A stretch of 64,000 nucleotides of DNA from an uncultured bacterium (GCA_964535215.1 CAZHST010000013.1:7758-71757), one strand, 5' to 3'. Shown: positions 3,744-30,780, numbered from the stretch's first letter. Notes: generated from the sequence alone by a model not told the origin. Numbers and translations are program-made.

Positions 3744-3788
3744 GCTCCCTCCCTTACAGGTTTTCCGTTGGGAAAGATCGTGGTGAGA

Positions 3789-4754: not shown

Positions 4755-4782
4755 CGTTTCCCTCCTAGGAAGCCTTCAGCTA

Positions 4783-4858
4783 TTAGCCATCAGCGGTCAG
4801 GTTTGAGGAGGTTCAAGGTTCAACGTTGAACTTTGAACCGTTTTTGGCTGACGGCTAA
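4783..4858. repeat. Nested palindromic intergenic element built from heptamer-like repeats
   Basis: Outer arms ttagccatcagc (4783-4794) and gctgacggctaa (4847-4858); inner near-perfect palindrome ggttcaaggttcaacgttgaactttgaacc (4810-4839). Confidence 0.7.
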
Positions 4859-5811: not shown

Positions 5812-5812
5812 C

Positions 5813-6775: not shown

Positions 6776-6785
6776 GGTTTCCTCC

Positions 6786-7742: not shown

Positions 7743-7759
7743 GGTCTTCCCTCCCTTCT

Positions 7760-8686
7760 TCAGGATCGTGTGCCCTGAAGCAGAAGCTCACGGCCGATAT
7801 AGTCCTGCCCGGATCTCCCGAAGGAGTAGCCGTTGCAGAAGCCTAACGGGGCTAGGGATCGAAGCTCTGTCAACCAGTGAGGGGTGCAGAACTCCTCTCC
7901 CGCCATGGCCCTTTGGAGGGCCTCGCGGTAGATGCCCCCGACCATCTTCACGTAACCAGGATCTTCACCCAGGGTATGGATGTAGAAGGTGTCAAAGCCC
8001 TGTTTCACGAGGAGGTCCAGGTGTTCCAGCAGGCAGAGGTCCTTCCCGCTCAAGTTGACCCTCCCGATGTTCTTCATGTGCCACTCCTCGTGGGTCAGCC
8101 AATGCCCCTGGGCACAACCCTCCTCGCAGTGGGCGGGGACTTTTTTCGTGTATTCGGTGAGGAAGCAGGTGGCCGAGATCACCAGGGGGATCTTGCCGTG
8201 GAGGGGGAGGATGACCTGGATAGGGGTATGATCCCTGATGTAGAGGATCTCCTCCAGGCTGAGCTCAGCGTTCGGGAAGACCCGCACGACCCCGTAGCCT
8301 TTCAGGACCCTGGCCGTCTCGTCGGTGTAGAGGTTGCCGAAGACCCCTAAATGGATAGGGATCTCACCCCTGAGTTCCCTGACGATCCTCAAAAGCCCCA
8401 TGCTGTGGACCTCAATGCCATCAAGGGGGAGGTCTCTCGACTCCTGCACAAGGACCCTAATCCAGGGAAGATCGCTGTCCTTCGGGATCGCATAAAGACT
8501 CAAGTAGCATTTCTTACCCATGGCCTTCACCCGGTAGACCCCTTCTCGGAGCTCTTGGAGGCACGAGCTGAAGTTGCCGGGGTAGAGGGGGCAGGTGAAG
8601 TCGCCCAGGTAGAGGGCGTCATAGGCTGAAAAGTCATAGGCTTGGAGCTTCTCCATGTTGGGGACATGGGTCGCTAACTCAAACAT
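7760..8686 (-). CDS. U32 family protein, UbiV-like
   Basis: LYLGDFTCP resembles UbiV YLGE.VC; HGKIPLVISATCF...HCEEGC resembles UbiV G.LPLA.S.RCF...C..CC. Confidence 0.75.
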   Translation of the reverse strand: MFELATHVPNMEKLQAYDFSAYDALYLGDFTCPLYPGNFSSCLQELREGVYRVKAMGKKCYLSLYAIPKDSDLPWIRVLVQESRDLPLDGIEVHSMGLLRIVRELRGEIPIHLGVFGNLYTDETARVLKGYGVVRVFPNAELSLEEILYIRDHTPIQVILPLHGKIPLVISATCFLTEYTKKVPAHCEEGCAQGHWLTHEEWHMKNIGRVNLSGKDLCLLEHLDLLVKQGFDTFYIHTLGEDPGYVKMVGGIYREALQRAMAGEEFCTPHWLTELRSLAPLGFCNGYSFGRSGQDYIGRELLLQGTRS

Positions 8687-9656: not shown

Positions 9657-10457
9657 CTAGATCCCCCCCCGGCTCAGCCGGACGAGTTTGGCCTCTTTAT
9701 CGAAGAGGGCCGTGGCGGCCAGGAGCATGGTGGCACTGAAGACGGAAAGGGCCATGAGATCTACCAGGACGGGGAGATCCGCTTCCATAGGGGTCAGGGT
9801 GGCATGGGGGAGGAGGACATGCTTGAAGAGGTCGATCCCGTAGGTGAGGGGATTCAGGTACATAGGGATCTGGAGCAGATCCGGGAGCAGCTTCACCGGG
9901 TAGAGGCCCCCGCTTAAGAAGAACATGGGGAAGACAACGAAGTTCATGATGGTGGCGAAGTTCTCCAGGGAGTCGATCCTCGTCGCCATCAGCATCCCCA
10001 GCGAGGCAACGGCGAAGGAGGTGAGAAAGAGGAAGAAGAGGAGCAGGAGGAGCTGGAGGGGGCCAACCGGGAGCCTCAAGAACGGGACGAGGATCAAGAG
10101 GAGGAGGGCCTGGAAGACGGCCAGCAGGGTACCTCCCATGACCTTTCCCAGAACGAGGGTTAGGCGGGAGACGGGGGCGATCAGCATGATCCTGACAACC
10201 CCGAACTCCCGATCGTAGACGGTGGAGAGGGACGAGAGCATGGCGCCGAAGAGGACGACGATCCCCAGGACGCCAGGGAAGAGGAACTGCTGGTAGGAGA
10301 TCCCTCCCTCCCCACCGAGGAGCCGATCGAAGCCAGGACCGACGATGAAGAGCCAGAAGAGGGGGCGGGCGAGGGAGCTCCACAAACGACCCTTTTGGCG
10401 GAAGAACCGCTTGAATTCCCGGAGGACGATTACCGAGAGCGGCTTCAGCTGAAGCAT
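9657..10457 (-). CDS. ABC-2 type transporter permease (PedC/DrrB-like)
   Basis: Multiple hydrophobic segments; YDREFG, FPMFFLSG.LYP and NPLTYGID motifs; ATG 10457 overlaps the upstream TGA. Confidence 0.85.
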   Translation of the reverse strand: MLQLKPLSVIVLREFKRFFRQKGRLWSSLARPLFWLFIVGPGFDRLLGGEGGISYQQFLFPGVLGIVVLFGAMLSSLSTVYDREFGVVRIMLIAPVSRLTLVLGKVMGGTLLAVFQALLLLILVPFLRLPVGPLQLLLLLFFLFLTSFAVASLGMLMATRIDSLENFATIMNFVVFPMFFLSGGLYPVKLLPDLLQIPMYLNPLTYGIDLFKHVLLPHATLTPMEADLPVLVDLMALSVFSATMLLAATALFDKEAKLVRLSRGGI

Positions 10458-10969
10458 CACTGCTGGGCCAGGTCCTTCATCAACGCGTCGATCCCTGCTT
10501 GGCAGGCCTGAGCGTCCTGATCCCCCCGGGCGCCGCTGGCCCCGCACCCTCCAATCACCGTCCCTCCCACGATAATGGGGAGGCCTCCTTCGAGGATCAT
10601 CACCCGGTCGAGGTGCTGGATGCCGTAGGCCCGTCCGTCAGGCCGGGCGATGTCCTGCAGGGCCTTCGTCGGACGCTGGAAGAAAACGGCGGTCGCTGCT
10701 TTCCTGATGGCGACTTCGATGGAGCCGAGGAAGGCGTCGTCCATTCGTTGGAAGTAGACCAAGTTGGCCCCATCGTCCACGATGGCGATGTTCAGCTTCC
10801 AGCCGTTTCTGATCGCCTCCAGTTCAGCGGCAGCGGCTACCTTCTTGGCAGCTTCCAGGGTGAGGGCCTTCTTCTCCCTAAGTTGCGCATGGCCAGGTTG
10901 AGCCAGGGCTAAGGCAAGGGCCAGAACAATACAGCCCCCGACGAACCACCGTAGACCTCTTCTCATCAT
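10457..10969 (-). CDS. GlcG/HbpS family heme-binding protein with a Sec signal peptide
   Basis: IAIVDDGANL...RMD, A..KA.TA and GGLPII.....IGG.GASGA...QD motifs; signal peptide ending AQPGHA. Confidence 0.85.
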   Translation of the reverse strand: MMRRGLRWFVGGCIVLALALALAQPGHAQLREKKALTLEAAKKVAAAAELEAIRNGWKLNIAIVDDGANLVYFQRMDDAFLGSIEVAIRKAATAVFFQRPTKALQDIARPDGRAYGIQHLDRVMILEGGLPIIVGGTVIGGCGASGARGDQDAQACQAGIDALMKDLAQQ

Positions 10970-11006
10970 TCTCCCTCCTTAAGGTTAAGGTTTCACGGTT
11001 CTTGTC

Positions 11007-11921
11007 CTATCGAATCGCCCGCCCCGTTAGGTGGATGAAGACTTCGTTCAGGGAAGGCCGGGTAATGTTGATGGCCAGGATCTTTCCACCAAAGCTGCTT
11101 AAGAGACGGGGGAGGAGGGTCTCGGCGGAGTCCACCTCCAGGAAGAGACCGTCCTGGGTCCGCTTCGTCACCACCGCGAACTGCCTCCGGATTTCATCCT
11201 CCACCCTGGCATCGTCAGTCGTCTTCAGGTGGATGACCTCCCCTTTGATCGTCCGCTTCAGCGTCTCCGGGGTTCCCAGGGCGATGATCCTCCCGTGGTC
11301 GATGATCGCAACCCGGTCGCATCGCTCCGCCTCATCCAGGTAGTGGGTGGTCAGGAAGATGGTCATGTGCTCCTGTTCCCGCAGCCGGTTAATCAGGTCC
11401 CAGATCGCAACCCGGGCCTGCGGGTCTAATCCGAGGGTGGGCTCATCGAGGAAGAGGATCCTCGGGCGGTGGAGGAGACCTCTGGCGAGATCCACACGCC
11501 GTTTCAGGCCTCCCGAGAGGGTCTTGACCAGGGCATCCCTTCGATCCGTTAGCTCCAGAACCTTCAGGGTCTCCCCGATCCGTTCCCGGGCCTCATGGCG
11601 CTTCATGTTGTAGAGGTAACAGGTAAGGAGGAGGTTCTCCTGTACGGTCAGGTCCTTGTCAAGGGTCGTCTCCTGGAAGACAAGGCCGATGGCGTTTCGG
11701 ACATGACGGGCCTCGGTTGTGCAGTCATATCCGTTGACTTTAGCCGATCCGGATGTCGGCTTCAAGAGGGTGCACAGCATATGGATGGTCGTGGTCTTGC
11801 CGGCGCCGTTTGGTCCCAGGAAGCCGAAGAACTCCCCGGCCTTGACCTCAAAGGTCACGCCGTCCACCGCCGTGGTGGCTCCAAAGCGCTTCACCAACCC
11901 TTTAGCCTCGATTGCCAGCAC
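11007..11921 (-). CDS. ABC transporter ATP-binding protein (DrrA/PedB-like)
   Basis: Walker A GPNGAGKT, signature LSGG, Walker B LFLDEPT, and LTTHY. Confidence 0.92.
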   Translation of the reverse strand: MLAIEAKGLVKRFGATTAVDGVTFEVKAGEFFGFLGPNGAGKTTTIHMLCTLLKPTSGSAKVNGYDCTTEARHVRNAIGLVFQETTLDKDLTVQENLLLTCYLYNMKRHEARERIGETLKVLELTDRRDALVKTLSGGLKRRVDLARGLLHRPRILFLDEPTLGLDPQARVAIWDLINRLREQEHMTIFLTTHYLDEAERCDRVAIIDHGRIIALGTPETLKRTIKGEVIHLKTTDDARVEDEIRRQFAVVTKRTQDGLFLEVDSAETLLPRLLSSFGGKILAINITRPSLNEVFIHLTGRAIR

Positions 11922-11989
11922 CGCTTTTCCCCGAGGTGGAGAAGGGGTTGTCTGGAGGTCGTCCGTCCAAGCCCCGCGGGAGGGTTGCC

Positions 11990-13477
11990 CTACAAGAGAC
12001 CGAGGGAGACGAACTTCACCTCGAGGTACTCCTCGATCCCCCAGTGGCCTCCTTCCCGGCCGAGGCCGCTCTGTTTGACACCCCCGAAGGGGGCCTGAAC
12101 GGTTCCGGGGAGGGGATCGTTCACCCCGACGATCCCGTACTCCAGCCGCTCGGCCACCCGGATGGCCCGGGATAGGTCCTTCGTGTAGAAGAAGGCGGCA
12201 AGGCCGGAGGGGAGGGCGTTGGCGAAGGAGAGGACCTCTTCCTCGGTCCTGAACGGGACGATGGGCACCACCGGCCCGAAGGTCTCCTCCTGCATGATCC
12301 GCATCTCGTGGGTGACTTGGGTGAGGACCGTCGGCTCATAGTAGTAGCCCTTCGCAAACTCCCCATCCTCCCGACGCCCTCCGCCGCAGAGGAGCTTGGC
12401 CCCTTTCGAGAGGGCTTCCTCCACATGATGCTTCACCTTCAGGAAGCCCCGCCTATCAATTAACGGCCCGACCTGCACGCTTTCATCCAGAGGATTTCCC
12501 ATCTTGAGCCCGTTCACCAGCTTCACGAAATGACGGGTGAAAGGCTCCACCACCGCCTCATGGACGTAGATCCGGTTGGTGCAGATGCAGGTCTGGCCCG
12601 TATTCCGGAACTTCGACAGCAAAGCTCCTCTGGCGGCTGCCTCGAGATCGGCATCCTCGAAGACGATGAAGGGGGCATGACCACCCAGCTCCAGGGTGAT
12701 CCTTTTCACCTGATCGGCGGCTCCCCGCATGAGAAGCCTCCCGACCTCTACCGACCCGGTGAAGTTCACCTTCCGGACCAAGGGGTTCTCCAGGAACTCC
12801 CGCCCGATCTCCTCCGGCTCAAAGGCCGTGACCAGATTCGCGACCCCGGGTGGCAGCCCAGCCTCTTCCAGAAGCTCGAAGATCGCGATGGCGGAAAGGG
12901 GAGTTTGCTCAGCCGGTTTCACCACCACCGTGCAGCCCGCGGCAAGGGCAGGGGCCAGGGGCCTTGTGATCCCGGCTGAGGGGAAGTTCCAGATGGTGAT
13001 GATGGCGGCCACCCCCACAGGGCGTTTCAGCACGAGGAGACGCTTGCCCGGGGAGGAGGCCGGGATCACCTCGCCATAGACCCTTTTCGCCTCCTCGGCG
13101 AACCATCCGAGGAAATCGGCCGCGTAGAGGATCTCCCCCCGGGCCTCCGTGATTGGTTTGCCCTCCTCAAGGGTGAGGAGTTGGGCCAACTCCTCTTTAT
13201 GGTCCAGCATCAGGTCCCGGGCTTTGAAGAGAATGGTGGCCCGATCTTTGGGGGGGAGGTCGGCCCATGACGGGAACGCCCGTTGAGCGGCCTCGATGGC
13301 CCGGCGGGTCTCCTCCCGACCGGCCCAGGGGACCTGGGCGATCACCTCACCGGTGGCAGGGTTTTCAACCGAGAAGGTCCGACCTGAATCGGCCTCGACC
13401 CATCGGCCCTCAATGAACATCCGCCAGGTTTTGACCTCCCCCTTTGAAACAAGAGCCCGGGCGCTCTCCATCGTCAT
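11990..13477 (-). CDS. NAD(P)-dependent aldehyde dehydrogenase (GabD/SSADH-like)
   Basis: FTGS.EVG, LELGGHAP (catalytic Glu), NTGQTC (catalytic Cys), EETFGP and PFGG.KQSG; start at ATG 13477 (ATGA overlap). Confidence 0.92.
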   Translation of the reverse strand: MTMESARALVSKGEVKTWRMFIEGRWVEADSGRTFSVENPATGEVIAQVPWAGREETRRAIEAAQRAFPSWADLPPKDRATILFKARDLMLDHKEELAQLLTLEEGKPITEARGEILYAADFLGWFAEEAKRVYGEVIPASSPGKRLLVLKRPVGVAAIITIWNFPSAGITRPLAPALAAGCTVVVKPAEQTPLSAIAIFELLEEAGLPPGVANLVTAFEPEEIGREFLENPLVRKVNFTGSVEVGRLLMRGAADQVKRITLELGGHAPFIVFEDADLEAAARGALLSKFRNTGQTCICTNRIYVHEAVVEPFTRHFVKLVNGLKMGNPLDESVQVGPLIDRRGFLKVKHHVEEALSKGAKLLCGGGRREDGEFAKGYYYEPTVLTQVTHEMRIMQEETFGPVVPIVPFRTEEEVLSFANALPSGLAAFFYTKDLSRAIRVAERLEYGIVGVNDPLPGTVQAPFGGVKQSGLGREGGHWGIEEYLEVKFVSLGLL

Positions 13478-13890
13478 GTCCTGTCCTCGGGGCAAGCCTG
13501 GGATTCCAGAAGCCCTTTTAGGAGGGCCAGCTCCTTCCTCACGTTGCCGATCAGGGTTTCGAACTGCCCGGGCGGGGCGCCAGGAGGCTCGAACTGGGTG
13601 AAGGTATAGACGACCCCGTCATCATTTTCCAAGAGCCGGGATGGGGAGGACCGGTACTTCCCTTCTGTCCCGTAGTAGAAATCGATCACACCGGTTTCTT
13701 TGTCGCTTTTCACGAACAGGTCCAGCTCCCCCCGGGGGGTCTGGACCTTGTAGATCTCGCCGGCCCTTGTGGGGGGGGCGAGGGCGAAGTCCACGGTCCA
13801 GAGGTGGAGGTTTTCGGGATTCGCGATGAACTGGAAGGCCTTCTCGAAAGAGGTCCGAATGGAGACACTTAAGGTTTCTGACCGTCGCAC
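13474..13890 (-). CDS. SRPBCC/START-like small ligand-binding protein
   Basis: 138 aa; F.FIANPENL..W motif and a C-terminal helix typical of SRPBCC folds; sits in the operon. Confidence 0.6.
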   Translation of the reverse strand: MRRSETLSVSIRTSFEKAFQFIANPENLHLWTVDFALAPPTRAGEIYKVQTPRGELDLFVKSDKETGVIDFYYGTEGKYRSSPSRLLENDDGVVYTFTQFEPPGAPPGQFETLIGNVRKELALLKGLLESQACPEDRT

Positions 13891-20785: not shown

Positions 20786-22183
20786 TCAACGAGGTTTAGG
20801 GATCTTGAACTTCTTTAACCGGTAGCGGAGGGTATCGCGGGTGATCCCTAAAAGTCTTGCAGCCTCAACCTGGTTTCCCCCTGTCTGTTGGAGGGCCCGC
20901 TCGAGCAAGGCCCGCTCCCACTGGGGCAGGCTAATCCCCTCAGGGGGGATCCTCACCACAAGCTCGAGGGGGTTCATCGGCACGGGGGAGGGTTTCTGGA
21001 GCTGGGGGGAGGAGGTGAGGGAGAGGTGCTCCGGTTCAAGGGTCTCCCCCTGACAGGCGAGGACCGCCCGCTCCATGACATGTTTCAACTCCCGCACATT
21101 CCCCGGCCAGTGGTACTGGACCAGGGCCTTGGCCGCTCGGTCGCTGATCCGGGGGATCGGCTTCGCGTATTTGCTGCTGATCCGCTCCAGGAAATACTTG
21201 GCAAGGAGGAGGATGTCCTCCCCTCGCTGGCGAAGGGGAGGGAGGTGGATGGTAAAGACGGCTAAGCGGTAGTACAGCTCCTTTCTGAAGGATCCCTGGG
21301 CAATGGCCTCTTCCAGATGTTTGTTTGTTGCGGCGATGATTCGGGCATCGATCTTCCGATCCCGAAGGCTGCCGATCCGCCGGATCATCCGTTCCTCGAG
21401 GGCCCTTAAGAGCTTCCCCTGAAGGGGGAGCTCCAGGTCGCCGATCTCGTCCAGGAAGAGGGTACCTCCGTTGGCCGCCTCGAACAAGCCCATCTTGGAT
21501 TCCTTGGCATCGGTGAAGGAGCCCTTCTCATAGCCAAAGAGTTCTGCCTCGACCAAGGTTGCTGGCAGGGCGGTACAGTCGATCTCGATAAAAGGCGCCG
21601 ACGCCCGGGAGCTGTTCATGTGGATGGCCCGGGCCACAAGACCCTTGCCTGTTCCTGTCTCACCGGTGATGAGCACCGTGGAGACCTCCTCCAGGGAAGC
21701 GATCTGCCGGATCTGCTGAAAAACCCGTTGCATCTCCTCACACTTGCCGATCAGGCCTTCGAAGGAGAAGGTCCTCGTCTCCCGCTCACGGTAGTAGAAG
21801 AGCTCCTGTCTTAAACGGGAGTCTTCGTGGGCCCGGTTCAGCAGGATCTTCAGCTCGCCCAGGTCCACCGGTTTCTTCAGGTAATCGAAGGCCCCAAGCT
21901 TCATGGCCTCGACCGCTCCCTCGATGGAGCCGTAAGCCGTCATGACGACCACATACATGTGGGGGTCAAACTCCTTCATCCTCTTCAAGAGCTCAATCCC
22001 GCTGATCTTCGGCAACCTCACATCCAGAAAGACCAGATCGGGATGCATGGTCTCGAGAAGACTCAGGGCCTTCTCCCCATCCTCCGCCACCTCAGCCTCG
22101 TAGCCCTGTTCCTCCAGGAAAAGTTTGATGGATCGGGCCAGGGTTTTCTCATCGTCCACGATCAGGATCGTGAAAGGTCCCAT
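20786..22183 (-). CDS. Sigma-54-dependent response regulator (REC, AAA+, Fis-type HTH; NtrC/AtoC-like)
   Basis: REC LDVRLP, Walker A GETGTGKG, GSFTDA loop, LFLDEIG, WPGNVREL, and HTH AARLLGITRDTLRYRL; ATG 22183 with SD. Confidence 0.93.
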   Translation of the reverse strand: MGPFTILIVDDEKTLARSIKLFLEEQGYEAEVAEDGEKALSLLETMHPDLVFLDVRLPKISGIELLKRMKEFDPHMYVVVMTAYGSIEGAVEAMKLGAFDYLKKPVDLGELKILLNRAHEDSRLRQELFYYRERETRTFSFEGLIGKCEEMQRVFQQIRQIASLEEVSTVLITGETGTGKGLVARAIHMNSSRASAPFIEIDCTALPATLVEAELFGYEKGSFTDAKESKMGLFEAANGGTLFLDEIGDLELPLQGKLLRALEERMIRRIGSLRDRKIDARIIAATNKHLEEAIAQGSFRKELYYRLAVFTIHLPPLRQRGEDILLLAKYFLERISSKYAKPIPRISDRAAKALVQYHWPGNVRELKHVMERAVLACQGETLEPEHLSLTSSPQLQKPSPVPMNPLELVVRIPPEGISLPQWERALLERALQQTGGNQVEAARLLGITRDTLRYRLKKFKIPKPR

Positions 22184-22205
22184 GCCTCCTCCCAAGATTT
22201 TCTCC

Positions 22206-23726
22206 TTACGAAGCCCGGACGGGGAGGGTGATCCGTACGGAGGTTCCCTTGCCGGGATCGCTCGTGATCGTCATGGTCCCTTTGTTCTGTTCGACAAAAC
22301 GTTCGGCAATGGCCAAGCCCAAACCCGTCCCATCGGCCTTGGTGGTAAAGAACGGTTCGAACACGTGGGGGAGGGCCTCTTCGGGGATGCCCTCACCGTC
22401 ATCGGTGACCTCAATGGCGACGACTTCTCCCTCACCCTCCCGCCCCATTCCCACGGAGAGCCGAAGGGTCCCCCCCTTGGGCATGGCCTCTAAGGCATTG
22501 GAAATCACCTCCAGGAGGGCCTGTTCGATCTGGGAGGGATCAATCCACACGCTTGGGAGATCAGGTTGAAAGGCGGTCTCGAGCCGGATCTGCTGTTCGG
22601 CCATCTTTTCGGTGAAGATGGTTAGCACACCCTTCACCAGAGGCTCCACCCTCTCGAAGAGGGGGTGAAAGGGGGCTGGCTTGGTAAAATCCAGCAGGTG
22701 GCTGATCCGCTTCTCCAAGCGGTCCACCTCCCCGATGACCGCCCGGAGGTGCTCGGTCAGGGGGCTTTTCTTCGGAAGCTGGTGGAGACTCAACTGGGTC
22801 GCCGCCCGGATACTGGCCAAAGGGTTCCGAAGCCCATGGGCCACGGCGGCCGACATCTGCCCAAGGGAAGCCAGCTTCTCCTTCTGGATGAGCTGGGCCT
22901 GGGTTTCCTTTATGGTCTGGATCTTTTGCTGGAGGTCGGCGTTCAAGCTGGCCATCTCCTCCTGGGTCTTCTTCAGCTTCTTCGTCATCTTGATAAAGGA
23001 CTCGGCCAGCTCACCGATCTCGTCTCGGGATTGGACCTGGATCGCATGATCCAGATGGCCTTCCCCCACAATATCCATGGCCCGCTTCAGTTCCTTGACA
23101 GGTCGGGCGAGGCTCCGGGAGATCAAAACGGAGAAGAGGATGCCAAAAAGGATGGAGGACAAAACGATGAGGATCAAGAGGGTCCTGGTGGACCGTTCGA
23201 TGGCCTCAAGCCTCTGAAAGGCCCGCTGGAGGTTGTGGGTCCTGGAGGTCCTGAAGATTTCCTTGATGACCCCGTCCAGAGCGGGGAGGAGGCGTCCGTT
23301 CAGCTCCTCTTTCGCCAGGCGTAGGGCCTCTTCCTTCCGGTTCTGGTCGTAGAGGTTGAAGGCTCTCACGGCCAGGGCCGCAATCTCCCCGTGGAGCTGT
23401 TCCAGTTCCTGGGCAAGCCGGAGGTCCTCGGGCTCCACAACGGCCTCCTTCCAGGTCTGCATCCTCCGGTGAATCCGGCCGTTCAGGCTCATGAATTGTT
23501 CCTTGGCCCCGCTCTCGAACCCCGTGAGGTAATCCCGGATCTTCCGGATCTGGCGGTAGATCATGGACTCCAGGTCCGAGAAGATCCTGACCCTCGACAG
23601 GCCGTTCTCGAGAGTTTTCAGGGCCCGGTTCTCCTCCCGGATGGTCCAGAGGGTCAGGCCCCCGATGACCATCAGGGGGACGATCATAATGGCAAAGGCC
23701 AGCATGAGCTTCTTTTGAAAGGTCAT
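22206..23726 (-). CDS. Membrane sensor histidine kinase (periplasmic helical sensor, HAMP, HisKA, HATPase)
   Basis: Two TM segments; HAMP DEIGELA; H-box AHGLRNPL; NALEAM, DDGEGI, FEPFFTTK and GTGLGL. Confidence 0.92.
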   Translation of the reverse strand: MTFQKKLMLAFAIMIVPLMVIGGLTLWTIREENRALKTLENGLSRVRIFSDLESMIYRQIRKIRDYLTGFESGAKEQFMSLNGRIHRRMQTWKEAVVEPEDLRLAQELEQLHGEIAALAVRAFNLYDQNRKEEALRLAKEELNGRLLPALDGVIKEIFRTSRTHNLQRAFQRLEAIERSTRTLLILIVLSSILFGILFSVLISRSLARPVKELKRAMDIVGEGHLDHAIQVQSRDEIGELAESFIKMTKKLKKTQEEMASLNADLQQKIQTIKETQAQLIQKEKLASLGQMSAAVAHGLRNPLASIRAATQLSLHQLPKKSPLTEHLRAVIGEVDRLEKRISHLLDFTKPAPFHPLFERVEPLVKGVLTIFTEKMAEQQIRLETAFQPDLPSVWIDPSQIEQALLEVISNALEAMPKGGTLRLSVGMGREGEGEVVAIEVTDDGEGIPEEALPHVFEPFFTTKADGTGLGLAIAERFVEQNKGTMTITSDPGKGTSVRITLPVRAS

Positions 23727-23730
23727 CGTC

Positions 23731-24600
23731 CTACCTGAGAGAAGAGGGAGAGGGGATTCCGTACCGGTCCGTGATCCGTTGAAGGACTCCCTCGTTCCTC
23801 AAACCATTGAGCGTCTGATCGAGGGTCGTTTTCAGGTCCTTGTCCCCCGCCCGAACGGCGATGACAAGGTTCCCCTGACGGCCCGGCTCGGGAACATAGC
23901 TCAGGTATGGGTTCGTGAGGATGATCTCATCGGTACCCACCTGTTCTGCGGGGACCCCCAGGAAGAAATCACAGCGCTTCTGAAGGAGGGAGTTTCCGAG
24001 GGCCCGGGTGAACCCTTTTCGGGTATCCACCCAGAAGTAGTTGGTACGGAGGCCCAAACGCTGGGTGATCTCACGGGCAAGCTCAACATCGAAACCTGTG
24101 GGCTTTGGGTCCTTGGTGGAAAAGGGGGGGTTATTGGGATCCGCACAGACGGTCATGACCCCTGTTTCCTTGGCCTTCGCCAGCGCCCCATAGTGTTGGG
24201 ATCGGAGGTAGGCGATGATCTTCCAGATCTCGTCCGAGGTGATGCGACCAGCGAAGGCGCCCATTTGGGTCCCTGGCCGTCCAGCGGCAATACTTGCGAA
24301 CACGTCCCCATCCCTCCCCCCGAACCGCCAGAAGTCGTCGGTCAGATCAGGGCCTTTTGCCCCTCTGCCCCCTGCTCCGTGGCAGAAGATGCAGAGACGC
24401 TGGTAGAGGACCTTCCCCTCCTCGATTGCACCAGGGTCCCCCTCGAAAGGGTTGGTGAGGCCTGCTGGTTCGTCCTGACCGAAAGCGATTTGCCCCCCGG
24501 GTGGAAAGGGCCAAAAGGTGAAGGCCAGAGGCAAGACGATCATCCCTCCCAGGAGGGCTCTTTTCGGTGGCCAGGCATGAAACGGGCTCTTTCGATGCAT
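23731..24600 (-). CDS. Fusion of an XoxG/MxaG-like cytochrome c and a single-lobe MxaJ/XoxJ-like domain
   Basis: Signal-like N-terminus, CIFCH heme motif, GPDLTDD.W and TQMGAF; then VCADPNNPPFS...CDF...IAVR.GD..LK..LDQ. Confidence 0.8.
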   Translation of the reverse strand: MHRKSPFHAWPPKRALLGGMIVLPLAFTFWPFPPGGQIAFGQDEPAGLTNPFEGDPGAIEEGKVLYQRLCIFCHGAGGRGAKGPDLTDDFWRFGGRDGDVFASIAAGRPGTQMGAFAGRITSDEIWKIIAYLRSQHYGALAKAKETGVMTVCADPNNPPFSTKDPKPTGFDVELAREITQRLGLRTNYFWVDTRKGFTRALGNSLLQKRCDFFLGVPAEQVGTDEIILTNPYLSYVPEPGRQGNLVIAVRAGDKDLKTTLDQTLNGLRNEGVLQRITDRYGIPSPSSLR

Positions 24601-24729: not shown

Positions 24730-25632
24730 CTAGTCGAAGGGGGCATAGAACGGCACCCCATATTTTGCCAGGATTTCTCGGACCTGTCCACTCTTTACTA
24801 ACCGATCAATGACCTGATTGATGGCCTCCTTTAAGTCCTGATCCTCCTTTCTCACCGCGATGGCGATGTTCCACCGCATCTCCGGCTCAGGGGTGTATCC
24901 TTCGAGCAGCTTCAGGCCGCTCTCTGGGTGCAACTTGATCCACCATCCGGCGGTCGGGGCCCAAAGGAGGGCCACATCCGGTGCCGGGGAAGGAGCCGGC
25001 GATCCGGGGGGTGACGATATCCACGTTGAGACCCCTGGTGGTGGAACCTCCCCTTTTTGCATCGCCTCGAGGGCTTCCCTTCCGTTGCGGAAGAGGGCCC
25101 GTTTGTAACCCTTGTAGAAGAGGTAGCCGTCGGCCGGGGTCGTCATCTCAACGCCGATCCTTTGGTCTTTGAGCTCCTGCAGACTCCGAATCTCTGGAGC
25201 TCCTCCGCGGACGACCAGCACAAACCCTGTCCCAAAATAGGGCTTGGTGAGCGCTAACCCTTTCTCCTCCATCTCTTCTTCCATTTCCGATCCGGTCGGA
25301 AGTCCCATGAAGAAGTCGCATTTCCTTTGCTGGATTGAGGTTCGGAGGGCCCGCCCAAGCCCACCCCGGGTGCCGGTATCAGCCCAGAAGTAGGTCACCC
25401 GGAGCCCTAAGCTCCTGCCTATTTCATCCGCGATCTCCACGTCGAATCCGGGACTGCCAGGGTTGTTGCTGGAGAAAGGGGGGTTATAGGGATCCACGCA
25501 AGCAATTAAGGAGCCCCGCTCCCTGACCTTCGCCAGGGCGTCTGCATCGGCCAAGGGGGGGCTTATCATCGGAACGACCAGCAACGGCGCAAAGGTCATC
25601 CCCAGAAACCGTAGAGGGTTCACCGTCTCCAT
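24730..25632 (-). CDS. MxaJ/XoxJ-like periplasmic binding protein of quinoprotein module 1
   Basis: ACVDPYNPPFS, GFDVEIA, KCDF and IAIAVRKED..LK.AI motifs; signal peptide from ATG 25632. Confidence 0.82.
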   Translation of the reverse strand: METVNPLRFLGMTFAPLLVVPMISPPLADADALAKVRERGSLIACVDPYNPPFSSNNPGSPGFDVEIADEIGRSLGLRVTYFWADTGTRGGLGRALRTSIQQRKCDFFMGLPTGSEMEEEMEEKGLALTKPYFGTGFVLVVRGGAPEIRSLQELKDQRIGVEMTTPADGYLFYKGYKRALFRNGREALEAMQKGEVPPPGVSTWISSPPGSPAPSPAPDVALLWAPTAGWWIKLHPESGLKLLEGYTPEPEMRWNIAIAVRKEDQDLKEAINQVIDRLVKSGQVREILAKYGVPFYAPFD

Positions 25633-25723
25633 CTCCTTTCCTGCCGAAACGCACGAAGGGAGGGCAGGAGATCCCTCCCGCCCTCCCCCGTACGGCCCAC
25701 GCCATTTCGGATCCAAGGCGGCC

Positions 25724-27445
25724 TTAGTGGAGGCCAAAGACCACCAGAAGCCCACCCTTCGTGTTGGTCTTCAACCACTCCTTGTAGTAGAGGGGCCAGA
25801 TCCCGCCTCCCCCGGCCCCCGCCACGATGGCCACATACTGCTTCCCCTCAACGGTGAAGGTGGTCGGGTTGCCGTGAATGCCGGTGCCGACGTTAAACCT
25901 CCAAAGCTCCTGACCCGTCGTGTCATCGAAGGCCATGAAGGTGCCCTCAGGGTTCCCGGCAAACACCAACCCGCCGGCGGTGGCGAGGACACCGCTCGTC
26001 ATGGGCATGGCATTATACCGGGTCCAGGCGATCTTCCCGCTGGCGGCATCGATGGCGTGGAGCCAACCATGGCCGGGTTTCAACCGAAGGACCTTGGCAC
26101 CCAGGTACCACTCCCCCCGCCTCCACTCCATCCTCGCGGCCTGGAGGTCCATAGCCATGTTGAAGGCCGGGACGTAGGCCAGGCCAGTCTTCGGGCTATA
26201 GGCAATGGGATGCCACTCCTTCCCCCCGTCCAGGACCGGGGCAACGTCTTCGGTGACCCGATCGTAGACGACATCCTTCTCCGGCCAGTTGAAGATAGGG
26301 CGCCCCTCCCGGGTGAAGCCTTTGTTCCAGTTGATCCGGGAAATGGCCGTCGCGTAGATGAACTTCCCGTTTGTCCGGTCAATGGCGTAGAAGTAACCGT
26401 TCCGGTCGCCGTGGAGCCACACCTTCCGACCCTGCACATCGGCCAGGACCACCTCGTTCACCCCGTCATAGTCATAGGGGTCGTTCGGGGTGTACTGGAA
26501 CCAGAACTTGATCTTGCCCGTGTCAGGGTCCATGGCCAGGGTGCAGTTGGTGTAGAGGTTGTCACCCGGCCGGACATGGCGATCGAAGTCGGGGCCAGGG
26601 TTTCCCACCGGCCAGTAGAGGATGTTCAGTTCAGGATCGTAGGAGCCGGTCACCCAGGCCGAGCCCCCACCGTACTTCCAGGAATCCCCACCCCAGGTCT
26701 CGTTTCCCGGTTCCCCAGGGCCAGGGATTGTGTAGGTCTGCCAGACTTGGTCCCCGGTCTCGGCATCAATGGCCTTGATCCATCCCCGGACGCCGTACTC
26801 GGCCCCTGAGGTCCCGAAGATGATCTTCCCGCGGAGGGCCATGGGCATAATGGTGAAGCTCTCCGAGTACGTGTAGTCCCCATGCTTTTTATCCCAGATG
26901 ACCTCCCCGGTCATGTTGTTCAGGGCGACCACATGGGCATCGAGGGTGGCCAGATAGACCTTGTCCCGGTAAAGGGCCACGCCCCGGTTCACCACGTCGC
27001 AGCAGAGGTGAGGGTAGACATCTCCCGGAAGCTCCCGTTCATACTTCCAGACGATCCTCCCGTTTCTGCCATCCACAGCCAGGACCCGGTTAAAGGAGGT
27101 GGTGACGTAGATCATCCCGTTGATGGCATTGGCCTGGCTATCCTGGCCTTCGACGACACCAAACGAGACGATATACTTCGGCACCAGGTTCCTAACGTTC
27201 CCTTTGTTGATCTGGTCGAGGGGGCTAAACCGGGTGCTGTGATAGTCCCGACCATAGAGGAGCCAGTTATTCGGGTCCTTATCGGCGTTCAGCAGGATCT
27301 CGTCGCTCACGTAGTTCGGGACCTGCTGGGCTTCCAGCACTTCCGGGAGGCCATAGACTTGGGCGGAGACAACAGCCGGTACGCCGACAAAGACAACCGG
27401 CAGGAGGAACAGGCCAAGAAGCATCCGCCTCTCTTTGGTCTTCAT
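25724..27445 (-). CDS. PQQ-type alcohol dehydrogenase 1, lanthanide-type (XoxF/PedH/ExaF-like)
   Basis: Signal peptide; vicinal CC in LCCDVVNRG; GAEY, GNP and YDYDGVNE (D-x-D at 26465-26473); beta-propeller W/GxG repeats. Confidence 0.9.
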   Translation of the reverse strand: MKTKERRMLLGLFLLPVVFVGVPAVVSAQVYGLPEVLEAQQVPNYVSDEILLNADKDPNNWLLYGRDYHSTRFSPLDQINKGNVRNLVPKYIVSFGVVEGQDSQANAINGMIYVTTSFNRVLAVDGRNGRIVWKYERELPGDVYPHLCCDVVNRGVALYRDKVYLATLDAHVVALNNMTGEVIWDKKHGDYTYSESFTIMPMALRGKIIFGTSGAEYGVRGWIKAIDAETGDQVWQTYTIPGPGEPGNETWGGDSWKYGGGSAWVTGSYDPELNILYWPVGNPGPDFDRHVRPGDNLYTNCTLAMDPDTGKIKFWFQYTPNDPYDYDGVNEVVLADVQGRKVWLHGDRNGYFYAIDRTNGKFIYATAISRINWNKGFTREGRPIFNWPEKDVVYDRVTEDVAPVLDGGKEWHPIAYSPKTGLAYVPAFNMAMDLQAARMEWRRGEWYLGAKVLRLKPGHGWLHAIDAASGKIAWTRYNAMPMTSGVLATAGGLVFAGNPEGTFMAFDDTTGQELWRFNVGTGIHGNPTTFTVEGKQYVAIVAGAGGGGIWPLYYKEWLKTNTKGGLLVVFGLH

Positions 27446-27603
27446 TGTTTCCTCCTCATACCTTCTCGTGAACAGCGCTCAACACTCTCCCTAGCTCTCT
27501 TGGGCCCAACCCCCTTCCACCCCCTTTCAGATCCTAAGCTCCTTGCTGAAGGGAGGTTCCTTCCCCATTATTAGCCGTACCAATCCCTGGCCGAGGTAGT
27601 TTA

Positions 27604-27632
27604 AATTTACAACACTGTTCTATTTCAGTCAA
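27604..27632 (-). promoter_or_regulatory. Sigma-70-type promoter for dehydrogenase 1
   Basis: TTGACT-N17-TAAATT; the spacer contains the palindrome AACAGTGTT. Confidence 0.6.
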
Positions 27633-27695
27633 GAAAAATACCACTGATCCCCCCAGAGCCGGCACCAGTCGGCGTCTGAGGGGACCAGGGGGGAT

Positions 27696-28082
27696 CTACC
27701 GGAGGACCTTTGAAGGGTCTCCCCGAGACTTGGACCGGATATAGGCGATGATCTTCCAGATCTGGTCAGGGGTCAGCTTTCCCTCCCATGGCGGCATGAG
27801 CGTCCCCGGACGGCCTCGGCTGATGGTTTTAAACAGCATGCCATCGGTTGGCTGGTACCTCCAGACGTCATCCGTGAGATCTGGACCCGTCCCACCTTCC
27901 GCGTTTAAGCCGTGGCAGTTATGGCAACCGGTGGCGAGGTAAAGCTGGTGTCCTTCGGCAATGGCCTTAGGATCTCCCGTATACGGATTCTTGTCATCCT
28001 CCTGAGCCGTGGTGATTGCCGTGGCCAAAATCCCTATGGCCAGCCCTCCAGCAAGAATCATCCCTCGGTCCCATCGTCTCAT
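27696..28082 (-). CDS. Cytochrome c (XoxG/MxaG cL-like or c550)
   Basis: Signal peptide; NPY.GD..AI.EG; CHNCH; GPDLTDD.W.Y; axial Met in TLMPPW. Confidence 0.88.
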   Translation of the reverse strand: MRRWDRGMILAGGLAIGILATAITTAQEDDKNPYTGDPKAIAEGHQLYLATGCHNCHGLNAEGGTGPDLTDDVWRYQPTDGMLFKTISRGRPGTLMPPWEGKLTPDQIWKIIAYIRSKSRGDPSKVLR

Positions 28083-28092
28083 CGTCTAGGCC

Positions 28093-28902
28093 TCATCCCT
28101 CAAAGGGGGGATAGAAAGGAATCCCATATTTGGCCAGGATCCGCTCAATGGTTCCATCCTTCAAGAGCGTTTCCACAGCTCCATCAATGACCTCCTTTAA
28201 ATCCTGGTCTTCCTTTCGGATTCCAATCGCCACGTTGGTTCTGAGTTCTGGATCCGGGTGATACCTGTCGGCGATCTTTACCCTCAGGGAGGGATCGGTC
28301 CGCTTCAACCATCCAAAGGTGGGAGCCCAGAGGAGGCCGGCTCTGAGCTCCCCCTTCTGGATGGCCTGGAGAAGAGCCCTCGGATCTCGGTACTGACGGA
28401 CCTGATACCCTCTTTGGAAGAGGACCCGATAGGGTCTGGTCCACACCTCAACCCCCACGGGGGTTCCCTTCAAGGCCTCCAGGGGAGGTGTCGCCTCGTC
28501 CTCGCGGAGCACGAGAACGTAGGCTCCTCCATAATAGGGCCGGGAGAACATCAGCTCCTCGCCGGCCCATTCCCCTACCGGAAGGCCCATGAAGAGATCG
28601 CAGCTCTTCTGGGCCAAGAGCCCGCGTCTGATCGCCCGCTCGGTGAAGTAGGTCTCGTTCCAGTGGAGCTGGAGCCGGATCCTGAGATGCGCAGCAATGG
28701 CCTGGGCGATCTCGATGTCGAACCCTGGGCGGGTGGGATCATCCATCGAGTAGGGGGGATTGTCTGGGTCCACGCAGATGCGGAGGATACCCGAGGCCTT
28801 GATCCTCTCCCAGGTCCCCAGCTGGGCCAAAACATCGGAGAGGGCCGGACCTCCAACGAGGAGGAGCCCCGCCATCAGGATCGAGACCTTCACCGTTTCC
28901 AA
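28093..28902 (-). CDS. MxaJ/XoxJ-like periplasmic binding protein of quinoprotein module 2
   Basis: ICVDPDNPPYS, GFDIEIA, SCDLFMG, LLWAP and IGIRKED motifs; signal peptide. Confidence 0.82.
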   Translation of the reverse strand: METVKVSILMAGLLLVGGPALSDVLAQLGTWERIKASGILRICVDPDNPPYSMDDPTRPGFDIEIAQAIAAHLRIRLQLHWNETYFTERAIRRGLLAQKSCDLFMGLPVGEWAGEELMFSRPYYGGAYVLVLREDEATPPLEALKGTPVGVEVWTRPYRVLFQRGYQVRQYRDPRALLQAIQKGELRAGLLWAPTFGWLKRTDPSLRVKIADRYHPDPELRTNVAIGIRKEDQDLKEVIDGAVETLLKDGTIERILAKYGIPFYPPFEG

Positions 28903-28921
28903 TCCTACATGGCTTGGCGCG

Positions 28922-30622
28922 TTAGTCCATCAGCCCAAAGACGAAGAGGGCCCCACCCTTGGTGTTCTCTTTCAACCAGGGGGCACACCCCCCACCCATC
29001 GTCTGCCATCCGATCCAGCCACCCCACCCTGAGACGATAGCCACGTACTGCTTGCCATCAACGGTGAAGGTGGTGGGGCTCCCCTTGATCCCGGAACCGG
29101 TCTGGAACTTCCAGAGGAGCTCGCCGGTCTTGGCATCGAAGGCCAGGAATTCCCCCTCCGGATTCCCCGTGAAGACCAATCCCCCTCCTGTCGCCATCAC
29201 ACCGGCGTACATCGGAGAACGGTTGTTCCAGACCCAGGCTGTTTTCCCGGTGGCCACATCAATGGCCTTTAGCGCCCCGTGGCCCGGATGGTACGCCAGG
29301 AGCTCCGCGCCCAAGTAAAACTGCCCCCTCCTCGGCTCCTCAAACTTGGCCTGCATATCCATGGTGCACTGGAAAGTCGGGACGTAGGCGTACCCGGTCT
29401 GGGGGCTGTAAGCCATTGGCACGGTCTCCTTCCCCCCTTCCAAAGATGGGGAGATGTTCCTCGTCACCCGATCTCGATAGACGAACTTCTCCGGGTTCAC
29501 GATCGGCCGGCCGGTGACGGGATCTAACCCCTTGGCCCAGTTAATAGGAGAAAGAGGGGTCGCATAGATGAACTTCCCGTTCGTCCGGTCAATGGCATAA
29601 AAGTAGCCATTTCGATCGGCATGGACCCAGGCCTTCCGTCCCTTGATATCTACCAGAATCACCTCGTTCGCCCCATCATAGTCCCAGACATCATGGGGGG
29701 TATACTGGAAGTAGAACTTGATCTTCCCGGTGTCCGGATCGAGGGCCAGGGTCGAGTTTGTATAGAGGTTGTCGCCGGGCCTGACCTCGCCGTCCAGATC
29801 AGGCGTTGGGTTTCCAACCCCCCAGTAGAGGATGTTCAGCTCGGGATCGTAAGAGCCTGTGAGGTAGGTAGAGCCGCCCCCGTACATCCAGGCGTCCCCT
29901 GATCCCCACGTCTCGTTCCCAGGCTCCCCAGGGGCAGGGATCGTGTAGGTCTTCCAAACACTTGCCCCGGTCTCCGCGTCAAAGGCCTGGATAAAGAGGC
30001 GGGTCGGATACTCGGCCCCTGAGGTGCCCACGATGATTTTCCCCCGTAAGGGGAGGGGGGCCACCGTCGTCGTATAGCCCCCGGTATAGTCCTCAAATTT
30101 GACATCCCAGATCACTTTACCGGTCTTGGCATCCAACGCGACAAGGTGCTCATCCAGCGTGGCCATATAGACTTTATCCCTGTACAGGGCAACTCCCCTG
30201 TTCAAGACATCACAGCAGAGATACCGGGTGATGTCCTCCGGGAGGGGATGGTAGTAGCGCCAGAGCACTTTTCCCGTTCGGCCATCCAAGGCGAAGAGCC
30301 GGTTCCAAGACGAGGTGACATAGAGCACCCCGTTATTGGCCATCGCCTGGCTGTTTTGGCCATCGAGGACCCCAAACTGGAAGACCCATTTGGGGACGAG
30401 CTTCTTCACATTGCTGGTGTTAATTTGGGCGAGGGGACTGAAGCGGGTGCTGGCGTAGTCCCGACCATAGAAAAACCAGTTGTGGGGATCCTTCTCGGCG
30501 TTCAAGAGCATCTCATCCGTGACATAGATCGGCTCAGCCTGCGCCGCGGCGACGGCCGGTACCGTGAAGAGGGTCAGGAGCGCCAGGATGAACCATCGAA
30601 AGCCTGGGTTCAATGGATTCAT
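28922..30622 (-). CDS. PQQ-type alcohol dehydrogenase 2, lanthanide-type
   Basis: Signal peptide; LCCDVLNRG, GAEY, GNP, TPHDVWDYDGANE (D-x-D at 29675-29683) and HADRNG. Confidence 0.9.
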   Translation of the reverse strand: MNPLNPGFRWFILALLTLFTVPAVAAAQAEPIYVTDEMLLNAEKDPHNWFFYGRDYASTRFSPLAQINTSNVKKLVPKWVFQFGVLDGQNSQAMANNGVLYVTSSWNRLFALDGRTGKVLWRYYHPLPEDITRYLCCDVLNRGVALYRDKVYMATLDEHLVALDAKTGKVIWDVKFEDYTGGYTTTVAPLPLRGKIIVGTSGAEYPTRLFIQAFDAETGASVWKTYTIPAPGEPGNETWGSGDAWMYGGGSTYLTGSYDPELNILYWGVGNPTPDLDGEVRPGDNLYTNSTLALDPDTGKIKFYFQYTPHDVWDYDGANEVILVDIKGRKAWVHADRNGYFYAIDRTNGKFIYATPLSPINWAKGLDPVTGRPIVNPEKFVYRDRVTRNISPSLEGGKETVPMAYSPQTGYAYVPTFQCTMDMQAKFEEPRRGQFYLGAELLAYHPGHGALKAIDVATGKTAWVWNNRSPMYAGVMATGGGLVFTGNPEGEFLAFDAKTGELLWKFQTGSGIKGSPTTFTVDGKQYVAIVSGWGGWIGWQTMGGGCAPWLKENTKGGALFVFGLMD

Positions 30623-30751: not shown

Positions 30752-30780
30752 CTTCTACAACACAGTTTTATTCTTGTCAA
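30752..30780 (-). promoter_or_regulatory. Sigma-70-type promoter for dehydrogenase 2
   Basis: TTGACA-N17-TAGAAG; the spacer aataaaactgtgttg mirrors that of dehydrogenase 1. Confidence 0.6.

Follow-up and report, generated by a model that had tools for sequence, protein, structure and literature searches.

Two PQQ-dependent alcohol dehydrogenases with a predicted lanthanide site, encoded in dehydrogenase-XoxJ-like-cytochrome modules of an uncultured subsurface NC10-type bacterium

We analyzed a 64-kb stretch of DNA (64,000 nucleotides, hereafter the window) from an uncultured subsurface NC10-type bacterium that hosts two PQQ dehydrogenase genes, ADH1 and ADH2 (Table 1). When the window was searched by tblastn with ADH1, ADH2, MxaF, PedH, ExaA and XoxF, the only matches were the ADH1 and ADH2 loci. 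The two are thus the sole PQQ dehydrogenase genes of the window, which bears out the claim of an earlier sequence-only reading that it holds no Ca-type paralogue. Both proteins carry a Sec signal peptide (cleavage ..VVSA/QV in ADH1 and ..VAAA/QA in ADH2). Each gene belongs to a module in which the dehydrogenase is followed by a XoxJ-like protein and then by a cytochrome cL-like protein.

Table 1. Features of the two dehydrogenase modules and the adjoining regulatory genes (positions counted from the first letter of the window).
Feature	Position	Strand	Description or basis
ADH1	25724..27445	minus	PQQ-dependent methanol/ethanol-family dehydrogenase, 573 aa
D325-Y326-D327 of ADH1	26465..26473	minus	D325, predicted catalytic base; D327, extra lanthanide-type Asp
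XoxJ/MoxJ-like binding protein, module 1	24730..25755	minus	TIGR03871 (113 bits) and SBP_bac_3
Cytochrome c fused to shortened XoxJ-like domain, module 1	23731..24600	minus	Pfam domains
Sensor histidine kinase	22206-23726	minus	Pfam; directly downstream of module 1
Sigma-54 response regulator	20786-22195	minus	Pfam; downstream of the sensor histidine kinase
ADH2	28922..30622	minus	PQQ-dependent methanol/ethanol-family dehydrogenase, 566 aa
D314-Y315-D316 of ADH2	29675..29683	minus	D314, predicted catalytic base; D316, extra lanthanide-type Asp
XoxJ/MoxJ-like periplasmic binding protein, module 2	28093..28902	minus	PDB XoxJ 6ONP; TIGR03871
Monohaem cytochrome c, cL/XoxG type, module 2	27696..28082	minus	PDB matches; TIGR03872

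The XoxJ-like protein of module 2 has XoxJ 6ONP as its top PDB match (E = 3e-17) and reaches 109 bits against TIGR03871, under the cut-off of 212. The cytochrome of the same module is matched best in the PDB by cytochrome cL/c551i (2GC4, 1MG2, 2C8S; E about 1e-15) and scores 75 bits against TIGR03872, again under the cut-off. The true start of the module 1 XoxJ-like protein is probably internal, near position 25632; this protein also has a Pro/Ser-rich insert. The module 1 fusion combines Cytochrome_CBB3 (residues 58-132) with SBP_bac_3 (residues 150-281). A cytochrome-XoxJ-like fusion is also found in the related contig L084, where the histidine kinase and the sigma-54 response regulator stand in identical order; these two proteins are the probable regulators of the locus. 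The tandem of dehydrogenase, binding protein and cytochrome recurs in three related contigs (L084, L085 and L086), and most members of the clade that includes ADH1 and ADH2 have a cytochrome and/or a binding protein after the dehydrogenase gene. The adjacent cytochromes are the predicted electron acceptors, one per module. A nearby aldehyde dehydrogenase resembles the succinate-semialdehyde type. Within the 64-kb window, nothing was recognised as a PQQ synthesis gene, a lanthanide-uptake receptor or lanmodulin; pqq genes were likewise not found in its short flanks, and the contig flanks outside the window carry housekeeping genes only. None of the RNA runs contained the locus.

Both dehydrogenases score well above the curated HMM cut-off of 480 bits for the methanol/ethanol family TIGR03075 (607.4 bits for ADH1 and 638.1 bits for ADH2), and both align end to end with PedH, XoxF and MxaF. 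The sequence match to PedH 6ZCV is strong (E = 3.4e-121 for ADH1 and 8.5e-131 for ADH2). The AF2 model of ADH2 (pLDDT 89.9, pTM 0.90) is an eight-bladed beta-propeller that superimposes on PedH, XoxF and MxaF with TM scores of 0.85-0.90. Its top structural match is PedH 6ZCW (TM 0.89-0.90, rmsd 1.8 A), and the top five matches are all lanthanide enzymes (PedH 6ZCW and 6ZCV, and XoxF 6DAM, 6FKW and 4MAE). For ADH1, the same eight-bladed fold is predicted from its 64.5% identity to ADH2.

Alignment to the solved structures places the metal ligands at E216, N282, D325 and D327 in ADH1 and at E204, N271, D314 and D316 in ADH2. We consider this alignment validated because its numbering gives the published XoxF ligands (Glu172, Asn256, Asp299 and Asp301). 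The Glu of GAEY, the Asn of GNP and the vicinal Cys pair (C148-C149 in ADH1 and C136-C137 in ADH2), all listed by the sequence-only reading, are present in both proteins. That reading had also reported YDYDG at 26465-26473 and WDYDG at 29675-29683; both motifs exist, but these positions cover D-Y-D only, the full YDYDG spanning 26462-26476 and the full WDYDG 29672-29686. In context, the motifs read PYDYDGVNE (codons GAC TAT GAC) in ADH1 and VWDYDGANE (codons GAC TAT GAT) in ADH2, as reverse complements of the window strand. The second Asp, D327 or D316, aligns with D301, the lanthanide-coordinating Asp of XoxF, and with its PedH counterpart, so a chance match of the motif can be dismissed. In this column, XoxF has D299/D301 and PedH has D-F-D, whereas the Ca2+-dependent enzymes have Ala305 (MxaF, D303-Y-A305) or Ser318 (ExaA, D316-F-S318); the MxaF-type Ala at +2 is absent from both ADH1 and ADH2. 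The Ca2+-dependent enzymes MxaF (1H4I/1W6S) and ExaA/PedE (1FLG) otherwise share with ADH1 and ADH2 the fold, the PQQ/Cys-Cys architecture and the first three ligands.

The rule on which the sequence-only reading relied, that D-x-D marks lanthanide enzymes and D-x-A/S calcium enzymes, was reproduced on the aligned solved structures. By itself, D-x-D is not diagnostic for all PQQ propellers. For instance, E. coli glucose dehydrogenase (Gcd) carries D466-M-D468 and is a Mg/Ca enzyme that has been reconstituted with Mg2+/Ca2+. In Gcd, however, Asn and Val replace the Glu and Asn ligands, whereas ADH1 and ADH2 have the complete PedH/XoxF set. Mutagenesis backs the rule: lanthanide-dependent function was lost in XoxF1 D320A and ExaF D319S (bioRxiv 10.1101/2020.02.25.964783). 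Reviews regard DYD as a lanthanide signature (PMC11845868).

One may ask whether ADH1 and ADH2 could instead be Ca2+-dependent or metal-promiscuous, the extra Asp serving some other purpose, for example hydrogen bonding in the second shell. Besides the Gcd example, the residue preceding the Glu ligand leans that way: it is Ala (A215 in ADH1 and A203 in ADH2), as in MxaF (Ala176), and not the Gly of XoxF (Gly171) or PedH (Gly172). Gly171 of XoxF has been proposed in the literature to make room for large lanthanides; it is an auxiliary, non-defining feature. PedH and XoxF can also bind Ca2+, with low activity. A Ca-type enzyme of broad metal selectivity has been reported (PMC10409515), and the window gave no lanthanide-uptake genes. 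On the other side, the assayed D-x-D enzymes of the methanol/ethanol family in the literature cited here are all lanthanide-dependent, and the second Asp is invariant in 118 of 118 close homologues and in all orthologues. D316 is encoded by GAT in the window and by GAC in orthologues; the Asp has thus been retained through synonymous change. Independently assembled contigs from four samples of the subsurface metagenome show 0 differences at either motif. Among diverse representatives, 134 of 150 have D-x-D. One clade member, from Methyloversatilis (L038), was found to have Ser at the second-Asp position, and from its sequence this looks like a derived switch to the Ca type, parallel to PedE/PedH. 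On balance, calcium dependence or metal promiscuity of ADH1 and ADH2 seems quite unlikely.

The closest match of ADH1 and ADH2 in both sequence and structure is PedH (PP_2679) of Pseudomonas putida KT2440, a lanthanide-dependent PQQ ethanol dehydrogenase; ExaF of Methylorubrum extorquens is of the PedH type. Identity to PedH is 44-47% in pairwise alignment columns and 42-44% by tblastn. PedH is periplasmic and matches the two proteins in its Glu/Asn/Asp/Asp ligands, its Cys-Cys ring and the Arg. As here, genes for a cytochrome c, in this case PedF, and for the XoxJ-like binding protein PedG lie near the dehydrogenase gene. The differences are a loop of about 20 residues past the fourth blade, present in PedH and missing from ADH1 and ADH2; Ala for Gly172, Phe/Leu for W265 and Thr/Tyr for PedH W467; and regulation, with a sigma-54 two-component pair at our locus and the LuxR-type PedR2 for PedH.

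XoxF (XoxF2 4MAE/6FKW, XoxF1-type 7O6Z, XoxF5 6OC5/6DAM) likewise shares D-Y-D and identical ligand positions. A further reading is that ADH1 and ADH2 are themselves XoxF-type methanol dehydrogenases, for instance of clade XoxF3, and that the locus is a methylotrophy module. The module of dehydrogenase, XoxJ-like protein and cL-type cytochrome fits, as does a Trp in ADH2 that is equivalent to XoxF W532 and MxaF W540, and XoxF3 has been reported from Rokubacteria and related phyla (PMC10875860). However, identity to XoxF is only 37-40%, compared with 42-47% to PedH. The long surface loops of MxaF/XoxF are missing, Pro stands for Thr259 of XoxF, and no formaldehyde-oxidation genes lie near ADH1 or ADH2, the neighbouring aldehyde dehydrogenase being succinate-semialdehyde-like. 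The tree, whose XoxF references are XoxF1-type, XoxF2 and XoxF5, also argues against this reading. In it, XoxF1-type, XoxF2, XoxF5 and MxaF sequences form a clade (100/100), PedH, ExaA and four genome relatives form another (100/100), and ADH1 and ADH2 fall in neither. The XoxF/MxaF group joins the PedH/ExaA group (98/95), leaving out the clade of ADH1 and ADH2 (100/99). We regard a XoxF-type identity as very unlikely.

By sequence phylogeny, then, ADH1 and ADH2 are neither XoxF (as represented in the tree by XoxF1-type, XoxF2 and XoxF5) nor ExaF/PedH, and belong to a separate, well-supported clade. This clade is widespread, with members in Burkholderiales, Alphaproteobacteria and Entotheonella MAGs. 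The types of PQQ alcohol dehydrogenase are reportedly treated by Keltjens et al. 2014. A plasmid search returned relatives of <47% identity only and no clade member. The name Mdh2 has been used for a different, NAD-dependent enzyme; the clade may be linked to the PQQ-dependent Mdh2 of Burkholderiales. No characterised member of the clade was identified, and applying the D-x-D rule here is therefore an extrapolation. A recent tandem duplication was rejected as the origin of the two genes: in the tree, ADH1 clusters with proteobacterial sequences and ADH2 stays outside that group (100/100), and dS between ADH1 and ADH2 is saturated (1.4). On these grounds, the two are paralogues of ancient divergence. 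Purifying selection on the two genes is strong (dN/dS of 0.04-0.09 between orthologues). A comparable approach was taken in the Voutsinos et al. 2026 preprint, which describes 15 predicted lanthanide-binding clades of eight-bladed PQQ dehydrogenases from metagenomic data; those clades likewise rest on D-x-D-based assignment and come from uncultured bacteria of many phyla.

The PQQ pocket is partly retained and partly altered (W243, W476 and Trp540 follow MxaF numbering). The PQQ-binding Arg109 and Arg331 are kept (R154 and R348 in ADH1, R142 and R337 in ADH2), as are T159 and S174. In MxaF, Trp243 is the PQQ-stacking residue and Trp476 a PQQ-contact residue. The former is kept in ADH1 (W264) and is Tyr in ADH2 (Y253); an assembly error was rejected as the source of Tyr253, the identical TAC codon occurring in two other metagenomes. 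At the latter position ADH1 has T483 and ADH2 has Y472; the Trp is missing clade-wide, with Thr or Met in its place. W265 is replaced by Phe in ADH1 and Leu in ADH2, and N394 by Glu in both. Since the MxaF/XoxF-type Trp540 is kept by ADH2 and absent from ADH1, the two enzymes may accept alcohols of different size.

These substitutions, the lack of pqq genes in the window or short flanks, and scores of 402 bits (ADH1) and 456 bits (ADH2) against TIGR04528 (acido-empty-quinoprotein group A) could be taken to mean that ADH1, ADH2 or both do not work as PQQ dehydrogenases in this bacterium and are instead "empty" quinoprotein homologues, sensors or enzymes with another cofactor, yet this is highly improbable: both scores lie far under the curated HMM cut-off of 650 bits while TIGR03075 is passed, the catalytic Asp, Cys-Cys pair, R109, T159, S174 and R331 are retained, the dN/dS is low, and a cytochrome c and XoxJ-like partner for each gene make sense only for a redox-active enzyme. 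PQQ import is also possible and is said to have been proposed for Methylomirabilis oxyfera.

The analysis itself establishes the motifs and residues, the fold, the phylogenetic placement, the order of the genes and the purifying selection on them; the metal, cofactor, electron path and substrate are inferred. We consider it likely, with a probability of about 0.8, that ADH1 and ADH2 are periplasmic, eight-bladed PQQ alcohol dehydrogenases whose metal is a light lanthanide (Ln3+) and not Ca2+. The mechanism as a whole would follow that of PedH and XoxF. The Cys-Cys ring would carry PQQ, and Ln3+ would be held by E216/E204, N282/N271, the catalytic D325/D314 and the extra D327/D316 (ADH1/ADH2) together with O5, N6 and O7 of PQQ. 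The bound Ln3+ would polarise the C5 carbonyl of PQQ. The alcohol would then give its proton to the first Asp and a hydride to PQQ, and the aldehyde would be released. Electrons would leave via the cytochrome c encoded beside each dehydrogenase gene, and the XoxJ-like protein would probably aid cofactor loading.

The lanthanide prediction is sound but routine, because D-x-D is an accepted marker and the majority state of environmental homologues. A bolder proposal is that ADH1 and ADH2 represent a third line of lanthanide-dependent alcohol dehydrogenases next to XoxF and ExaF/PedH, with a remodelled cofactor pocket, in a host without visible canonical PQQ synthesis. We think this unlikely. Under it, the pair could differ from known enzymes in the lanthanides they prefer, in redox tuning or in the range of substrates, or could rely on a quinone that is imported or made by another route. 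As the clade combines the lanthanide Asp with an MxaF-like Ala and an altered PQQ pocket, it is a natural testing ground for the reach of the D-x-D rule. If the lanthanide assignment is true, a subsurface NC10/Methylomirabilota lineage would join the organisms that need rare-earth metals for alcohol oxidation, and a clade without an identified characterised member would join the rare-earth-dependent alcohol oxidisers.

Both predicted PQQ alcohol dehydrogenases of the window, ADH1 and ADH2, contain the D-Y-D motif where the sequence-only reading had placed it, and alignment to solved structures bore out the Glu, Asn and vicinal Cys pair described alongside. The reference sequences were rebuilt from PDB alignments (MxaF from 1H4I and 2D0V, PedH from 6ZCW, ExaA from 1FLG, XoxF2 from 4MAE), and because the alignment reproduced the published XoxF ligand numbers (Glu172, Asn256, Asp299, Asp301), the registers are right. 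The contrast drawn earlier between lanthanide-type D-x-D and Ca-type D-x-A/S also held: the residue two after the catalytic Asp (the +2 position) is Ala305 in MxaF and Ser318 in ExaA, whereas it is Asp in PedH, XoxF, ADH1 and ADH2. Both motifs are identical across contigs of four samples from a single subsurface-metagenome study.

Features of the window and residue correspondences (MxaF numbering where marked)
Feature	Position	Strand	Residues or length	Remark
ADH2	28922-30622	-	566 aa	module 2 PQQ dehydrogenase
D-Y-D of ADH2	29675-29683	-	D314-Y315-D316	motif
Family-3 solute-binding protein	28093-28902	-		module 2
Monohaem cytochrome c	27696-28082	-		module 2
ADH1	25724-27445	-	573 aa	module 1 PQQ dehydrogenase
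D-Y-D of ADH1	26465-26473	-	D325-Y326-D327	motif
Second binding protein (XoxJ-like)	24730-25755	-		module 1
Cytochrome c fused to shortened family-3 binding-protein domain	23731-24600	-		module 1
Promoter-like elements	27607-27631; 30755-30780	-		upstream of ADH1 and ADH2
Aldehyde dehydrogenase group	9657-13495
U32 operon	55-8686
E177 (MxaF)			ADH1 E216; ADH2 E204	metal ligand
N261 (MxaF)			ADH1 N282; ADH2 N271	metal ligand
D303 (MxaF)			ADH1 D325; ADH2 D314	catalytic base
A305 (MxaF)			ADH1 D327; ADH2 D316	+2 position
C103-C104 (MxaF)			ADH1 C148-C149; ADH2 C136-C137	disulfide ring
R109, R331 (MxaF)			ADH1 R154, R348; ADH2 R142, R337	PQQ binding

The two genes lie in two alike three-gene modules (23.7-30.6 kb, minus strand), followed by a sensor kinase and then a sigma-54 response regulator. 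Both proteins carry Sec-type signal peptides and pass the NCBI curated model for PQQ methanol/ethanol dehydrogenases (607 bits for ADH1, 638 for ADH2; cut-off 480). A tblastn search of the window returned no further PQQ dehydrogenase gene, in agreement with the earlier statement that it holds no Ca-type paralogue. XoxJ (6ONP) is the best solved relative of the binding protein (E = 3e-17), and cytochromes cL and c551i are those of the cytochrome. Similar promoter-like elements, reading cTTGACa/t, ~11-12 bases, a(a/c)(t/a)GTGTTGTAa/g, lie ~150-185 bases upstream of the two start codons. A low-complexity insert rich in Pro and Ser (..EVPPPGVSTWISSPPGSPAPSPAPDV..) sets the module-1 XoxJ-like protein apart from its module-2 paralogue, which lacks it. 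The GTG annotated as the start codon of the module-1 protein lies inside the end of ADH1, and its true start is probably internal. The cytochrome/binding-protein fusion recurs as a 270-aa gene in L084, one of three related contigs.

The +2 Asp is conserved in 118 of the 118 closest database homologues and in every orthologue found on the three related contigs (L084, L085 and L086), where the tandem layout is also kept. Orthologue dN/dS is 0.04-0.09, and the D316 codon shows a synonymous change (GAT versus GAC). AF2 predicts the structure of ADH2 with confidence (pLDDT 89.9), and the model is closest to PedH (6ZCW/6ZCV; TM 0.89-0.90, rmsd 1.8-1.9 A), then to XoxF (6DAM, 6FKW, 4MAE) and then to Ca-type enzymes.

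Trees of 110 and 46 sequences agreed in placing ADH1 and ADH2 within one clade (support 100/99), together with sequences of NC10 MAGs, Burkholderiales, Alphaproteobacteria, Entotheonella, and Methyloversatilis, Methylibium and Hyphomicrobium MAGs; no characterised (assayed) member was identified in it. XoxF1-type, XoxF2, XoxF5 and MxaF form one clade (100/100), and PedH and ExaA form another; these two unite (98/95), leaving the ADH1/ADH2 clade outside. Because of this separation, the two enzymes belong neither to XoxF1/2/5, the XoxF types covered by the references, nor to ExaF/PedH; membership of XoxF3 or XoxF4 is a possible but unlikely alternative. Across the ADH1/ADH2 clade the dehydrogenase is usually directly followed by a homologous cytochrome, binding protein or both, which does not hold for the neighbouring acidobacterial clade. 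Such an arrangement is also known around XoxF, ExaF and PedH. Recent tandem copying was rejected: ADH1 and ADH2 are 64.5% identical with saturated dS, and the pair is therefore old. ADH1 is placed beside sequences of Burkholderiales and Alphaproteobacteria and apart from ADH2 (100/100), pointing either to an ancient duplication or to genes passed laterally between Proteobacteria and NC10-type bacteria.

In both enzymes Ala directly precedes the Glu ligand (GAEY), a feature shared with MxaF; XoxF and PedH have Gly there, a proposed aid for large lanthanides. The combination of Ala and D-x-D is stable across the close subclade. The pocket of the two enzymes is unlike that of any solved enzyme. 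In MxaF numbering, both have E for N394, ADH1 has F and T for W265 and W476, and ADH2 has L and Y (Y472, 29207-29209). The PQQ-stacking W243 is Trp in ADH1 and in all 118 close homologues, and Tyr in ADH2 (Y253, 29864-29866), a change that recurs in two other metagenomes. ADH2 orthologues have Y and Y at the W243 and W476 sites in L084 and L085 (97-98%), and W and T in L086 (82%). The paired Tyr change in the ADH2 cofactor pocket is real and lineage-specific.

The membrane glucose dehydrogenase of E. coli K-12 (gcd) has D466-M-D468 at the aligned position while its other ligand positions differ, so D-x-D alone does not identify lanthanide enzymes beyond the methanol/ethanol family. Within the ADH1/ADH2 clade, one Methyloversatilis MAG (L038, match 10001-11605) has D-Y-S, and thus a switch to the Ca type seems possible there; other Methyloversatilis MAGs (L035, L070) have D-Y-D, and the two forms may correspond to PedE and PedH as a pair of one Ca-type and one lanthanide-type enzyme. 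A Candidatus Methylomirabilis sp. MAG (L043, ~4544-6214) has E-Y-D, with Glu replacing the catalytic Asp, on a long branch (51% identity).

Neither pqq genes nor a TonB receptor nor lanmodulin were found within the 64-kb window, and the contig flanks beyond it hold housekeeping genes. Downstream of the modules, an aldehyde dehydrogenase near the succinate-semialdehyde type (626 bits; model cut-off 646) lies alongside an ABC ATPase, a secreted GlcG/HbpS-like protein and an ABC-2 permease, a gene content reminiscent of the PedB/PedC portion of the lanthanide-related transporter in Pseudomonas. This enzyme type, with no formaldehyde-oxidation genes near ADH1 and ADH2, weakly disfavours a dedicated methanol role. 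A further operon encodes four U32-family proteins, an NMT1-like protein, a PEP-utilising enzyme and an aminotransferase, in a gene order that recurs in another locus (L081).

A scan of all 1.84 billion cluster representatives returned 2,712 clusters at E <= 1e-30. Asp occupies +2 in 134 of the best 150 representatives (36-65% identity), with Thr in 9 others, Gly in 3, Ala in 2, Ser in 1 and Asn in 1. In environmental data, the PQQ methanol/ethanol family has the lanthanide-type motif by default, and the presence of this motif in ADH1 and ADH2 is not very unusual. Predicted lanthanide eight-bladed PQQ enzymes have been counted in 15 clades (2026 preprint, Voutsinos et al.), and reviews name DYD the signature (PMC11845868). 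XoxF1 D320A showed neither La binding nor methanol oxidation, ExaF D319S lost function in vivo, and the authors put the Asp forward as a marker by which further lanthanide enzymes could be recognised (bioRxiv 10.1101/2020.02.25.964783). The lanthanide need expected by the sequence-only reading is supported as a prediction, with a probability of about 0.8, and ADH1 and ADH2 are predicted additions to the established class of lanthanide-type PQQ alcohol dehydrogenases.
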